A stretch of DNA of 4,715 bases from IMG/VR virus record IMGVR_UViG_2541047686_000001; one strand, written 5' to 3'. A program made the translations under genes and the position numbers. Numbering within the stretch: the first letter of the stretch is position 1; every line of letters starts with the position of its first letter. Positions 1 through 4,715 of the stretch are shown in pieces. The notes beneath the pieces are model-generated. The model did no database searches and was not told where the DNA came from. It saw only the letters and a program-made list of their open reading frames with translations. This stretch comes from a virus (taxonomy: Duplodnaviria; Heunggongvirae; Uroviricota; Caudoviricetes).

Positions 1-303
1 TTCAGCATGAGAAATTGCCTCTGTGGGCCAGGTGGTAAGCACTTCCTGCTCAATCTGTTTAACGGCTTCATTCATGGAAGGCAGCTTTGTCTTCTTCGGA
101 TGGTTATGCCACAGGGACATCGCCACCAGAAACGCGCCGGTTCTGATGGCGTCTTCCACAGTAAACTTCCGGTTGCTGTCTGACTCCGCCTGTTCTGCCT
201 GCCGTTTCATCAGGGCGAGATGCTCAATACGCTGCAGGGCTGACAGTTCAGAAAGCGTGACGGTCACACCGTTATGTTCAAATGATTCGGTTTTCAGGAA
301 CAT
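1..303 (-). CDS. G: Tail assembly chaperone G, N-terminal 101 codons; 3' end lies beyond the window start
   Basis: Reverse-complement translation from the ATG at 303..301 gives MFLKTESFEHNGVTVTLSELS and the codon at 1..3 ends ...WPTEAISHAE, matching lambda gpG from memory. A 15-nt gap to the V stop with a GGAGA Shine-Dalgarno matches lambda V-G spacing. Not in the ORF track because no stop codon falls in the window. Confidence 0.88.
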   Translation of the reverse strand, partial: MFLKTESFEHNGVTVTLSELSALQRIEHLALMKRQAEQAESDSNRKFTVEDAIRTGAFLVAMSLWHNHPKKTKLPSMNEAVKQIEQEVLTTWPTEAISHAE

Positions 304-318
304 CGCTGACTCTCCGGA

Positions 319-1059
319 TTAACTGGCGGTGACGTTGATTTCTGCAACCGCAGCAAACTCACCATTACCGGATACGACCGGAATGTTGACCTTGCCTGCA
401 GCAACACCTTTCACGGTGATGGTCATACCACTGACCGACACGGTGGCTTTTGTTTTATCCGCAGACACCGCACGGAAGCTCTTGTCGGTTGCGCCCTCCG
501 GCTGGAATGCCACGGTCAGCGTGGTGCTCTGCCCTTTCACTACGGAAGCACTGGCGGGTGTCACCGTCATGCCGGTTGTCGCCGTCACCGTGCTGCGATC
601 TTCTGCCATCGACGGACGGCCCACATTGGTGACCTTCACCGTGCGGGTGATCACTTCCTTCGCCGTCACCGCCTTACCGATACTGCTGACCCAGCCGCGG
701 AACACATCGACCGTGCCGTTCGGGAAGCGGATTTTATAGGCTCGGGTATCCCCTTCATTAAACCACGCCAGCAGCGCCTGCTGCCCCTGCTCTCCGGGCA
801 TCCACGCCAGCGTGAAGCTGGTATCTCCGGCAGATTTCTGCCCCTGTCCGGTCGCGGTCCAGTCCGCATCTTCATCATCGAGATAACTGTCGTCATAGGA
901 CTCAGCGGTCAGTTCGCCGGGCGTCAGGTCTTTAACTTTAGCCAGACGCGACCAGTCAACGTCTGAAAGCGGGTTCGCATAAGGGTCACCGTTCCCCTTA
1001 TAAACCCACAGTGTGGTCCCGGCCCCTTTCACCGGTGCCAGAGGATTTGGTGTTGGCAT
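319..1059 (-). CDS. V: Major tail tube protein gpV (246 aa) with C-terminal Ig-like domain
   Basis: ORF 319..1089 translation from [22 protein letters not shown] to the end matches lambda gpV. Start placed at the ATG at 1059..1057, 7 nt after the U stop as in lambda; the track's longer start at 1089 overlaps U. Stop TAA at 321..319. Confidence 0.93.
736..830. repeat. Copy 1 of a 95-bp exact direct repeat, internal to V (codons about 77-108)
   Basis: Base-by-base comparison shows 736..830 is identical to 4621..4715. The flanking bases 735 (t) and 4620 (g) differ. Confidence 0.95.
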
Positions 1060-1066
1060 ATCGTCC

Positions 1067-1462
1067 TCACATTTCATAGGTAATGACATAAGTCAGATCG
1101 GCTGAACTCCACAGGCCCGCATCATCGTCGCGCCGGTAGTCATAGCCACTGGCCACCATACTGGTGATCAAATCTGACAGTGCCGGGATATCGCTCATCA
1201 CCGGATAAATCCGGGACTCCATCCACGAATCCAGCTCTGAATCCGGCACCTGAGCAGGCAGGAAAACTTCAATATGCAGCTCCGCCTGCCAGGTATCACT
1301 GTCCAGCTCTTCGCCCGTGTATTCAGCGCCGGTGAGATAAACGGCAACTGCCGGAAAATCCGCCTCATCAAAAACAGCGGGGCGACCATCAAAAAACGTC
1401 GCCCCGGTGTCATGCTTCTCCAGTGCATCCAGTACGGCTGCACGGAGTTCAGTATGTTTCAT
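1067..1462 (-). CDS. U: Tail terminator protein gpU (131 aa)
   Basis: Translation [31 protein letters not shown]... matches lambda gpU in length and sequence. Its ATG (1462..1460) overlaps the Z stop TGA (1461..1459) in an ATGA arrangement, as in lambda. Confidence 0.94.
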
Positions 1463-2037
1463 CGCTTTATTACCATCCTCAGTTGATGCTGCAGCGCATA
1501 GCCCAGCTCTTTCGGAAGACGCTCACGCCGTATCCGCTCAATATTCTGTTTAAACGCCGTGGTCAGCGGCACCGCCATCGGAATTTTCACCACATCAATG
1601 GGGTAACGATTTTTCCCGGCCACACGCTGCATAACATGCCAGCGGCCATTTTTCAGTTGCTGAATAAACGCGCCGGGAATACGACGGTTTCCCACCACAA
1701 GCACGCTGCCGCCACCTTTCAGGGCTGAACGCTGCCCCTTTTTACGACGCCTGCGTCGGGACAGGACAATCCGCGCGTTACCCAGCTTTATTACGGGCAA
1801 ATCCCCCCGGTTAACCCTGATTCTGGCCTGCGGATTTTTGACCGTGGCCCTTTTCAGCCTGGCCCTTTCCTTTACCAGTTTCCGGCGTACCTTTGTCTCA
1901 CGGGCAACCTGTGACGCCGACTGCGATATCGCGGATGAAGCAACGCGGTTAATGGCCATTGCGGCGGCACCGGGCACCGCCGTTCTGCTGATACGGCTGA
2001 GGTTTTCAACGGCCTGCTCAAGACCTTTTATGGCCAT
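1459..2037 (-). CDS. Z: Tail completion protein gpZ (192 aa)
   Basis: Translation MAIKGLEQAVENLSRISRTAVPGAAAMAINRV... matches lambda gpZ at 192 aa. Shine-Dalgarno AGGGGG lies 4 nt upstream of the ATG at 2037..2035. Confidence 0.94.
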   Translation of the reverse strand: MAIKGLEQAVENLSRISRTAVPGAAAMAINRVASSAISQSASQVARETKVRRKLVKERARLKRATVKNPQARIRVNRGDLPVIKLGNARIVLSRRRRRKKGQRSALKGGGSVLVVGNRRIPGAFIQQLKNGRWHVMQRVAGKNRYPIDVVKIPMAVPLTTAFKQNIERIRRERLPKELGYALQHQLRMVIKR

Positions 2038-2048
2038 ACATCCCCCTT

Positions 2049-2402
2049 TCAGCGGCGACGGTTAACGGCAGGCGGTACGCCCCGCCCAAGCCAGAGATGA
2101 CAGCTTCCGCCATCATCCGGCGAAATCCGGTCTATCCAGAAGTTTTCCTCACCGATGGTCAGCGTGTCGCCGCGCCGCAGCTGCCGCACATCATCAGTCC
2201 GGACAAACAGGAACGGGCTGGAGCCTTCAACGCGCACGCCCTGTCCGGCATAGCTGATATTTTCAGGATCATCAAAAACACCACGTATCACAGCACCGGA
2301 CTGCTCACCGGATGTCATGGTGGCTGACGTTCCCATGTACCCGCGTATCGTTTCATCGGCGCGGGCAATGGCAGCATCGAACAGGTTATCGAAATCAGCC
2401 AC
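2049..2402 (-). CDS. FII: Head-tail joining protein gpFII (117 aa)
   Basis: Translation MADFDNLFDAAIARADETIRGYMGTSAT... matches lambda gpFII at 117 aa. The start codon is GTG (plus strand cac at 2400..2402), preceded by GGGAGG with a 5-nt spacer. Confidence 0.92.
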   Translation of the reverse strand: MADFDNLFDAAIARADETIRGYMGTSATMTSGEQSGAVIRGVFDDPENISYAGQGVRVEGSSPFLFVRTDDVRQLRRGDTLTIGEENFWIDRISPDDGGSCHLWLGRGVPPAVNRRR

Positions 2403-2413
2403 AGCGCCTCCCG

Positions 2414-2809
2414 TTATTGCATTCTGGCCAGGCCGCGCTCTGTCATTTCAGCTGCCACACCGGCAGAGACACGGAACGCCGTTCCCGGCAGCACAAATGC
2501 CACAGCCTCATCCCGCGTGGCGTGAAGTGCATCAGTATGCAGCGTCACCAGTGCCACAACCGTGACCAGATCAGCCGTATCAGTCACGGTATCCGGCTGC
2601 GCTGATACCACCTCATTTTCATGTCCGGTCAGCGCATTTTCCGGGCTGACAGATGTGTCCTGACCAGCAGCGTCATCCGTGTCATCAAGCTCCTCTTCCA
2701 GCTCTGCCACACGGAGTGCCAGTTCTTCTTTCGTCCCCGTCAGGCTGACATCACGGTTCAGTTGCTCACCCAGCACCTGAAGACGGGCAATCAGTTCATC
2801 TTTCGTCAT
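2414..2809 (-). CDS. FI: DNA packaging / head assembly accessory protein gpFI (131 aa)
   Basis: Translation from MTKDELIARLQVLGEQLNRDVSLTGTKEELALRVAEL... matches lambda gpFI. Start placed at the ATG at 2809..2807, which has a GGAGGAG Shine-Dalgarno (plus 2813..2819) upstream; the track's longer ORF to 2848 would run through the intergenic hairpin. Confidence 0.9.
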   Translation of the reverse strand: MTKDELIARLQVLGEQLNRDVSLTGTKEELALRVAELEEELDDTDDAAGQDTSVSPENALTGHENEVVSAQPDTVTDTADLVTVVALVTLHTDALHATRDEAVAFVLPGTAFRVSAGVAAEMTERGLARMQ

Positions 2810-2812
2810 GGA

Positions 2813-2819
2813 CTCCTCC
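2813..2819 (-). promoter_or_regulatory. Shine-Dalgarno sequence for FI (GGAGGAG)
   Basis: Plus strand ctcctcc at 2813..2819 is GGAGGAG on the minus strand, 3-5 nt upstream of the FI ATG at 2809. Confidence 0.6.
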
Positions 2820-2830
2820 ACAGAGAGAAA

Positions 2831-2848
2831 ATGGCCCCGAAGGGCCAT
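2831..2848 (-). promoter_or_regulatory. Candidate RNA stem-loop just after the E stop codon: 7-bp stem with a UUCG tetraloop, followed by UUUUCUCUCUG and the FI Shine-Dalgarno
   Basis: Plus strand atggccc(2831..2837) cgaa gggccat(2842..2848) is a perfect inverted repeat. On the mRNA it reads AUGGCCC-UUCG-GGGCCAU, beginning 2 nt after the E stop. Confidence 0.35.
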
Positions 2849-2850
2849 GA

Positions 2851-3876
2851 TTACGCCAGTTGTACGGACACGAACGCATCAGGGTCAGCCAGCAGCATCA
2901 GCGGTGCTGACTGAATCATGGTGAACTCACGCGCCGGATCGCCGGTGGTCACCCAGTTTTTCGGGTAGCGGGCAGAGGCGTTAATACCTTCGCGCTGTGC
3001 GTCCGCATCCTGAATGCAGCCATAGGTGCGCAGACCGCGTGCCTGAGTGTTCCCCAGCACCATCGTGTTGTCCGGCAGGAAGTTCTTTTTGACGTCGTTT
3101 TCCACGTACTGTCCGGAATACACGACGATCGCCGTATCGCCATACATCCCCTTATAGGACACCGCTTCGCCCAGATCTTTTACCGCTGTCTCCAGCTCGG
3201 AATGAGAGCCGCGACGGGTATCCAGCTTCTCCTTGACGGCTTTGAAGGAACGGAACAGCGCCCAGCCTTTCGGATCAAACACGATGATATTCACCACACC
3301 GCTGGCGTTCAGCGCGTAGGCTTCGATATCGTCGGTCGGGTCATACGTGGACTTGTCACGCTTGCTCCACTCCGTACCGCCGGACTGCGTGATGTTGTTC
3401 GCCACACTGCGGCCCATATCCACTTCAACCGGATCGAAGGCTTCACCGGTCATGGTATATTTGCCCTTAAGCACGGCAGAAACGGCCTGCATCTCTTCGA
3501 CCTGAGCAATGGCCAGCTCTTCGTCTCGCATGTTCTGCAGAATGATGCGACGGCGGCGGTAAGCCGGGTCCGCCAGATTCTGTGGATCTTCATCCGGCAG
3601 GCGACGCAGGGTCATCTGCGGATTCACCTCATGCTTCGGCTTGACATATCCCGGTGTAAATTCAGAGGTGGAGCCGCCACGGGAGCGGATAACCTCACCG
3701 GAAACAATCGGCGAAACGTACAGCGCCATGTTTACCAGTCCCGGAATTTGTGAGAGATAGACTTTCTCCGTGGTGAAGGGATAGCTCTCACGGAAAAAGA
3801 GACGCAGAAACAGCGGATCAAACTTAAATTTCTTCTCATTTGCCGCCAGCAGCTGGGCGGTTGTGTACATCGACAT
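2851..3876 (-). CDS. E: Major capsid protein gpE (341 aa, HK97-fold)
   Basis: Translation MSMYTTAQLLAANEKKFKFDPLFLRLFFRESYPFTTEKVYLSQIPGLVNMALYVSPIVSGEV... to ...LLADPDAFVSVQLA matches lambda gpE. The 1026-nt length equals lambda E. Start at the ATG at 3876..3874; the track's upstream extension uses a non-ATG codon (cac on plus at 3901..3903). Confidence 0.95.
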   Translation of the reverse strand: MSMYTTAQLLAANEKKFKFDPLFLRLFFRESYPFTTEKVYLSQIPGLVNMALYVSPIVSGEVIRSRGGSTSEFTPGYVKPKHEVNPQMTLRRLPDEDPQNLADPAYRRRRIILQNMRDEELAIAQVEEMQAVSAVLKGKYTMTGEAFDPVEVDMGRSVANNITQSGGTEWSKRDKSTYDPTDDIEAYALNASGVVNIIVFDPKGWALFRSFKAVKEKLDTRRGSHSELETAVKDLGEAVSYKGMYGDTAIVVYSGQYVENDVKKNFLPDNTMVLGNTQARGLRTYGCIQDADAQREGINASARYPKNWVTTGDPAREFTMIQSAPLMLLADPDAFVSVQLA

Positions 3877-3889
3877 AAAAAAATCCCGT

Positions 3890-3914
3890 AAAAAAAGCCG
3901 CACAGGCGGCCTTT
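3890..3914 (-). terminator. Candidate intrinsic-terminator-like hairpin in the D-E intergenic region: GC stem flanked by an A-tract and a U7 tract
   Basis: Plus strand gccgc(3897..3901) acag gcggc(3906..3910) preceded by aaaaaaa(3890..3896). On the mRNA it reads AAAG-GCCGC-CUGU-GCGGC-UUUUUUU, lying upstream of the E start at 3876. Confidence 0.3.
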
Positions 3915-3931
3915 AGTGATGAAGGGTAAGG

Positions 3932-4264
3932 TTAAACGATGCTGATTGCCGTTCCGGCAAACGCGGTCCGTTTTTTCGTCTCGTCGCTGGCAGCCTCCGG
4001 CCAGAGCACATCCTCATAACGGAACGTGCCGGACTTGTAGAACGTCAGCGTGGTGCTGGTCTGGTCAGCAGCAACCGCCAGAATGCCAACGGCAGCACCG
4101 TCGGTGGTGCCATCCCACACAACCAGCTTACGGGTGGAGGTGTCCAGCATCAGCGGGGTCATTGCAGGCGCTTTCGCACTCAATCCGCCGGGCGCGGTTG
4201 CCGTATGTGCCGGGTCACTGTTGCCCAGCGGCTGGTAATGGGTAAAGGTTTCTTTGCTCGTCAT
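3932..4264 (-). CDS. D: Capsid decoration protein gpD (110 aa)
   Basis: Translation [110 protein letters not shown] matches lambda gpD. Start at the second ATG (4264..4262), 9 nt after the C/Nu3 stop as in lambda; the first ATG at 4270 sits directly against the GGG of the Shine-Dalgarno. Confidence 0.94.
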
Positions 4265-4273
4265 AAACATCCC

Positions 4274-4620
4274 TTACACTGGTGTGTTCAGCAAATCGTT
4301 AACGGCATCAGATGCCGGGTTACCTGCAGCCAGCGGTGCCGGTGCCCCCTGCATCAGACGATCCAGCGCAGTGTCACTGCGCGCCTGTGCACTCTGTGGT
4401 GCAGCTGCCAGAATGCGGCGGGCCGTTTCCACGGTCATACCGGGGGTTTCGGCCAGCACGCGTGCCTGTTCTTCGCGTCCGTGAGCCTCCTCACAGTTGA
4501 GGATCCCCATAATGCGACTGTTTTCTGCCGCAACCGCTGCGGTGATCTGCGCGTTCACGTCCGGCTGCGCCGCGCTGGCGTTCTCGCCCTCCGTCGCTTG
4601 CACCACCTCAGTAACGTCAG
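4274..4620 (-). CDS. C: C-terminal portion of the overlapping C (prohead protease) / Nu3 (scaffold) frame; N-terminal part is absent and the frame is cut at the repeat junction
   Basis: Translation ...[109 protein letters not shown] matches the shared C-terminus of lambda gpC/gpNu3. Stop TAA at 4276..4274. Beyond 4620 the sequence is V-derived and this frame hits a stop at 4640..4642. The track's start at 4606 is an internal GTG, not the native start. Confidence 0.82.
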
Positions 4621-4715
4621 ATAGGCTCGGGTATCCCCTTCATTAAACCACGCCAGCAGCGCCTGCTGCCCCTGCTCTCCGGGCATCCACGCCAGCGTGA
4701 AGCTGGTATCTCCGG
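4621..4715. repeat. Copy 2 of the 95-bp exact direct repeat (displaced V fragment); it runs to the window edge so true length may be greater
   Basis: Identical to 736..830. Abuts the truncated C/Nu3 frame at 4620|4621, where collinearity with lambda breaks. Confidence 0.95.

Follow-up and report, generated by a model that had tools for sequence, protein, structure and literature searches.

A truncated C/Nu3 frame in a lambda-like prophage contig of Escherichia coli HVH 10 is probably an artefact of draft assembly

The truncation of the C/Nu3 frame described here is probably an artefact of draft assembly, caused by a spurious edge in the assembly graph, and not a feature of the prophage. In that case the gene would be truncated only in the database record. 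The window, which is the whole 4,715-nt stretch of DNA that was analysed, turned out to be one entire contig inside the 3.79-Mb scaffold KE698887.1 of E. coli HVH 10 (4-6832164) (GCA_000456165.1). Its reverse complement is an exact match to positions 9892-14606 of the locus L004 (KE698887.1). The strain follows from an H fragment, cut by a gap and found on this scaffold alone, which NCBI lists under E. coli HVH 10 (4-6832164). The earlier note, which was made from the letters alone, had named an artefactual junction as the case that would overturn its own interpretation. That case is now favoured by the position of the join at a contig end, by the gap beside it and by the absence of the join elsewhere, and its main rival is a tandem duplication.

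All of the genes in the window lie on the minus strand in the order of the lambda late operon (Table 1). The breakpoints were located by alignment with the intact reference phage 1H12 and with the C protein of a closed relative, L012 (NZ_CP145703.1). The C frame is cut at nt 974, the second base of codon 325 of 439. The V piece ends at nt 324, the third base of codon 108. Elsewhere, a single base separates the window from 1H12.

Table 1. Positions of the genes and junction features in the 4,715-nt window
Feature	Position	Strand	Remark
V stub (V nt 230-324)	4715..4621	minus	exact copy of 736-830
V/C junction, V nt 324 and C nt 974	4620/4621	minus	blunt, no microhomology
C/Nu3 3' remnant, C nt 974-1320	4620..4274	minus	without protease domain, without native start
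V frame through the junction, out-of-frame tail to stop	4686..4555	minus	truncated V' tail if the join is real
First in-frame start of the C remnant, GTG, C codon 330	4606..4604	minus	110-aa ORF of gene callers
D, head decoration, intact	4264..3932	minus	coordinates from L012 annotation, zero mismatches
E, major capsid protein, intact	3876..2851	minus	L012 annotation
FI, intact	2809..2414	minus	L012 annotation
FII, intact	2402..2049	minus	L012 annotation
Z, intact	2037..1459	minus	L012 annotation
U, intact	1462..1067	minus	L012 annotation
V, major tail protein, intact; holds the other copy of the 95-mer at 736-830	1059..319	minus	L012 annotation
G, 5' 303 nt, cut by the contig end (1,280-N gap)	303..1	minus	L012 annotation

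The remnant of C starts with the last 2 nt of codon 325, runs through codons 326-439 and closes with a TAA stop at 4276..4274. All of its 114 complete residues agree with positions 326-439 of C in the closed relative, where the protein is intact at 439 aa; the earlier note had estimated about 115 codons. A Pfam search placed Peptidase_S49 (PF01343) at residues 150-297 of intact C (E = 5e-44), and no Pfam family was matched by the 114-aa remnant, from which the S49 catalytic domain is absent. There are in-frame ATGs at C codons 239 and 309, both upstream of the breakpoint, and the former is presumably the position of the annotated Nu3 start in lambda. Consequently, a Nu3-type internal start with a ribosome-binding site was not found in the remnant, since both candidate starts are cut away. 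It is thus true of the record that the C/Nu3 frame is missing its protease domain and its native starts. The C-terminal region common to C and the nested scaffold is present, directly upstream of D and E, and D begins 10 nt past the stop of the remnant. As for the candidate starts themselves, the ATG at codon 309 (L012 12293-12316), which lies outside the window and 16 codons upstream of the breakpoint, has a perfect AGGAGG at a spacing of 4 nt, and the ATG at codon 239 has a poor Shine-Dalgarno sequence. Within the remnant, the GTG at 4606..4604 had been taken as the sole in-frame start, but it is the first of ten. Nine further start codons follow with first bases at 4603, 4558, 4510, 4459, 4438, 4432, 4354, 4294 and 4279, and those at 4510, 4438 and 4354 are ATGs. 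The remark that a GAGG is badly spaced beside this GTG was correct, because the two overlap and the spacing is zero. In the real prophage, the S49 domain and the Nu3 starts are almost certainly present.

The structure of the junction is simple. The 95 bases at 4621-4715 are 100% identical to those at 736-830 and lie 3,885 nt from them. The join connects a downstream end to an upstream point on the same strand and is blunt, and no microhomology was found on either side of it. Its topology is that of a novel joint of the tandem-duplication type with a unit of 3,885 bp. The V frame is not fused to the C frame, because it runs through 21 out-of-frame codons and terminates at 4557..4555. In the C frame, two stop codons lie 8-9 codons before the join.

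Two other explanations for the position of the breakpoints were considered, and neither gained support. The first was a hard boundary shared with an independent draft of the same prophage (L009), whose contig starts at C nt 973. This coincidence is not significant but a selection effect, because a look-up with the 110-aa ORF returns only contigs that start within the roughly 30 nt before the GTG. The second was that the ends of the unipaths were set by single-nucleotide differences between paralogues. This predicts variant sites at C 973 or 1069 and V 229 or 325, and none was present in the five other lambdoid alleles compared.

The same look-up led to an allele in which C codon 324 is changed from CAG to TAG, 2 nt upstream of the breakpoint. 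At least five independent assemblies carry it (L002 9983-9985; L003, L006, L007, L008), with 12 similar places besides, and because of it gene callers report C in two parts, a protease of 323 aa and the 110-aa ORF already mentioned. Its closeness to the breakpoint of the window is again a selection effect of the ORF look-up. Genuine truncations of C/Nu3 by stop codons thus occur among E. coli prophages.

The junction was searched for in several collections. In 5,426 complete E. coli genomes, a 295-nt query across the join found 0 places covering at least 80% of it, and the halves of the query were matched in 3,586 of these genomes. Closed genomes with this very prophage are among those that lack the join, as is expected of an artefact. 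Among 50,697 phage records the junction was also absent, and the window was matched only as two pieces within a span of 4,620 bp. No plasmid record of the plasmid collection contained it. A 31-mer across the junction had no exact match in GTDB genome contigs, IMG/VR or JGI metagenome contigs. The two junction-specific ORF products were on record nowhere in the gene index. Among the papers searched, none mentioned this accession or strain, and none gave the experimentally determined start of Nu3.

When contigs encoding exactly the 110-aa ORF were looked up, the identical V/C junction turned up in L004, on scaffold KE698887.1, and the surroundings of the contig could be read there. N runs flank the window contig on both sides, with 3,335 N at the end of the V stub and 1,280 N at the end of G. 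The V stub forms the last 95 nt of the contig and abuts the 3,335-N gap directly. Beyond this gap lies Nu1 in normal orientation and order, cut at nt 395 (L004 6162-6556). Beyond the 1,280-N gap, the 3' part of H is followed by M, L, K, I and J. The three scaffold contigs are collinear with L012, with 2, 0 and 0 mismatches, respectively. Mapping to L012 gave a true content of 4,805 bp for the first gap and 1,926 bp for the second, so that both were underestimated in the scaffold by a similar factor of about 0.67-0.69. The last 44 nt of contig A, which carry the two mismatches to L012, were suspected of being the tail of a paralogue. This was rejected in favour of ordinary lineage variation. 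The closed genome 118UI matches the 44-nt variant at 100%, and in it C nt 974 lies exactly 4,805 bp further.

The first gap probably holds the rest of C, B, W, A and Nu1, which may have stayed unassembled owing to near-identity with a co-resident lambdoid prophage, and we infer a repeat origin for both gaps. Several lambdoid prophages are usually present in an E. coli genome. A 20-kb query gave a median of 4 lambdoid places per genome, and most of the listed relatives had 4 places for the two-part junction query, which we read as two copies of each half. The 131-aa product of the truncated Nu1 was found, exact, on 489 contigs. Many E. coli drafts break at this same point of Nu1, as would be expected at the edge of a sequence shared between prophages. 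For C, 1,396 distinct C-terminal fragments are on record, many of them named 'S49 family peptidase, partial'. From the C fragments and the truncated Nu1 contigs together, contig breaks in the head genes are routine in drafts.

The intact form of the element is well represented in closed genomes. Over a span of 22,354 bp, the closed E. coli genomes at the head of the listing agree with the non-N bases of L004 at 100.0% identity. In all, the best place reached at least 99% identity in 95 records. L012, the one that was examined in detail, carries Nu1, the terminase large subunit, W, the portal, an uninterrupted 1,320-nt S49 peptidase, D and E. There the whole element is a near-complete lambda-like prophage of about 47 kb at icd, running from int to J (L013/L014, NZ_CP145703.1 5,106,748-5,154,111). 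Its genes include int, xis, exo/bet/gam, a cI-like repressor, O, P, Q, the lysis genes and the full head and tail set. The prophage also carries iss (a bor homologue), a moron block of lipocalin, ybgA and AraC genes, and sitABCD. In closed relatives, an IS1 sits in ninE and the side tail-fibre gene is split. Deposited phages named 'Lambda_2E9', 'Lambda_2G7a', 'Lambda_ev203' and 'Lambda_ev110' are 100% identical to positions 1-4620 of the window. The sister phage 1H12, with its one mismatch, is classified in RefSeq as Jouyvirus.

These data bear on the possibility that the join is a real rearrangement and that the remnant is the only copy of C. The prophage would then be without protease and scaffold and defective in head assembly. 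Such a reading has in its favour just what the contig literally contains, and it is unlikely. Nu1 is found upstream in its normal orientation, beyond a gap whose estimated length would accommodate A-W-B-C, and a simple deletion cannot produce the order V then C. Moreover, identical prophages in closed genomes are intact and complete from int to J at icd. The proposal of a non-functional protease and scaffold in a defective prophage thus finds no support, given Nu1 across the gap and a 439-aa C in the identical prophages of closed genomes. The earlier note had advised a search of the source genome for intact C/Nu3, B, W, A and Nu1. They are intact in the identical prophage of the closed genome, but the HVH 10 scaffold itself has a gap of Ns at that place. 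An intact C is expected upstream, because an assembly artefact and a tandem duplication would both leave one.

The way in which an assembler could have made this join can be outlined. ALLPATHS-LG uses a unipath graph with K = 96, gaps in the graph are filled by reads of the jumping library, 'ignoring their pairing', and the jump fragments span 2-10 kb (PMC3483556). With K = 96, adjacent unipaths share K-1 = 95 bases. The HVH samples have four SRA runs each, with Broad authors as depositors (PMC7067039). The use of ALLPATHS-LG and of its library types for HVH 10 is what we infer from this, and the sized N gaps fit. The stub is 95 nt long, which is K-1 for K = 96, and it is located at a contig terminus beside a scaffold gap. 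For this reason, the stub shows only an edge between the 95-mer of V and C nt 974 and is not evidence of a longer copy of V upstream. The first 95 bases of the contig (V nt 230-324) would be the K-1 overlap of a graph edge that links the middle of V to C nt 974. Most likely, such a spurious edge would come from a read across the circularisation junction of a mate-pair ('jumping') fragment of about 3 kb. In a circularised fragment, the 3' end would be ligated to the 5' end of the same molecule, and a read across this point would give downstream and then upstream sequence, on the same strand and blunt. As ALLPATHS-LG feeds unpaired jumping reads into the K = 96 graph, a chimeric edge could enter the graph by this route. 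Upstream of C nt 974, the real molecule would continue with the rest of C and then B, W, A and Nu1, hidden in the 3,335-N gap. The lack of microhomology supports this mate-pair origin as the most likely one, and so does the span of 3,885 bp, a length typical of mate-pair fragments.

There is a weak point in the explanation by an assembly artefact. To cross the join at K = 96, the graph must contain an unbroken series of 95 different 96-mers that span it. A single chimeric read of 100 nt would be insufficient to supply them, unless patching or a helper step with a small k had bridged the join. A real joint at full depth would supply every junction-spanning 96-mer and would give the same contig with the same K-1 stub. 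A genuine 3,885-bp tandem duplication private to the HVH 10 prophage, from C nt 974 to V nt 324, is the main rival, and we regard it as possible though rather unlikely. The order would be ...B C D E FI FII Z U V'/'C D E FI FII Z U V G..., with the second copy and the novel joint in the window and the first copy, including the intact C, in the gap. The topology of the junction is exactly that of a tandem duplication, and the breakpoints, being off variant sites in the alleles examined, look like arbitrary positions. On the other hand, the joint was present in no other genome, including many closed ones with an identical or near-identical prophage, so that the duplication would have to be private to this isolate. 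The length of 3,885 bp also falls in the range of mate-pair inserts. Spontaneous duplications that arise without RecA more typically show some microhomology, and this joint has none. In addition, the duplication would lift the prophage from about 47 kb to about 51 kb, as much as lambda can package. Of the readings in the earlier note, we judge the artefactual junction to be more likely than the second copy of a tandem duplication.

The size of the first gap does not decide between the two. In the scaffold the upstream copy is represented by 95 nt only, followed by the 3,335-N gap, and a duplication needs 8,595 bp at this place against the 4,805 bp otherwise expected, but the estimated size is non-discriminating because mate pairs from Nu1 to the first of two copies would lead to an equal value. 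The fit of the gap size to a model without duplication is consequently weak evidence. If the duplication were true, the genes D-E-FI-FII-Z-U would be doubled and the genome would be near the lambda packaging limit. A truncated V' (108 aa with a 21-aa tail) and an orphan Nu3 C-terminal ORF without its native start would be added. Even so, it would amount to a minor structural variant, private to one strain, in a phage module that is already well understood.

Several other loci with related sequences were encountered. In the metagenome contig L005 (1-10333; ENA ERZ27287817, contig k141_50749), a lambda-type C remnant lies directly beside a baseplate and tail-fibre module of Mu-like type (Gp45, GP46, Baseplate_J, Gp48, fibre, Caudo_TAP, DUF4376). 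The homology to the prophage begins at C nt 935 and continues through D, E ... J. This contig is either a real mosaic or a chimera. In L011 (1140-10212) and L003 (1-8200), a satellite-like element stands directly beside lambdoid head genes, after D in the former and before a portal fragment in the latter. It is composed of an integrase, AlpA, DUF4222, a D5_N primase, SSB, an E-like capsid protein, a D-like decoration protein and a Nu1-like small terminase subunit, and we take it to resemble the capsid-forming satellites of the PICI type.

The overall result indicates that the C/V join is most probably ordinary and not a feature of the organism. The understanding of head assembly in lambda is unchanged by the truncation of C. 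Nevertheless, the case calls for caution. Scans that treat the contigs of a split scaffold as complete molecules will misread graph stubs as rearrangements and as truncated genes. Contig ends of this kind account for thousands of 'partial' fragments of C, Nu1, G and H among the public drafts of E. coli.

The join can be compared with three known systems. With the contig-end artefacts of de Bruijn and unipath assemblies it shares the K-1 stub at a terminus beside a gap, as well as the topology and the span of a circularised 2-10 kb jump. It differs from them in that the step of the assembler from one chimeric read to a full path of 96-mers is here only presumed. Classical tandem duplications of lambda are known from the genetics of the 1970s as products of illegitimate recombination. 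Like them, the join is a head-to-tail novel joint in the late operon, and its unit measures a few kb. Unlike them, it comes with just 95 nt of the putative upstream copy, and neither a second copy nor an independent occurrence was found. In comparison with lambda gpC, an S49 prohead protease, and its nested scaffolding protein gpNu3, the S49 domain and both candidate Nu3 starts are absent from this record. As for the likeness to lambda, the remnant corresponds to the C-terminal 114 residues of a lambda-type 439-aa C, the genes behind it (D, E, FI, FII, Z, U, V and G) keep the order of lambda, and the gene coordinates of lambda are those used for the reference phage 1H12.
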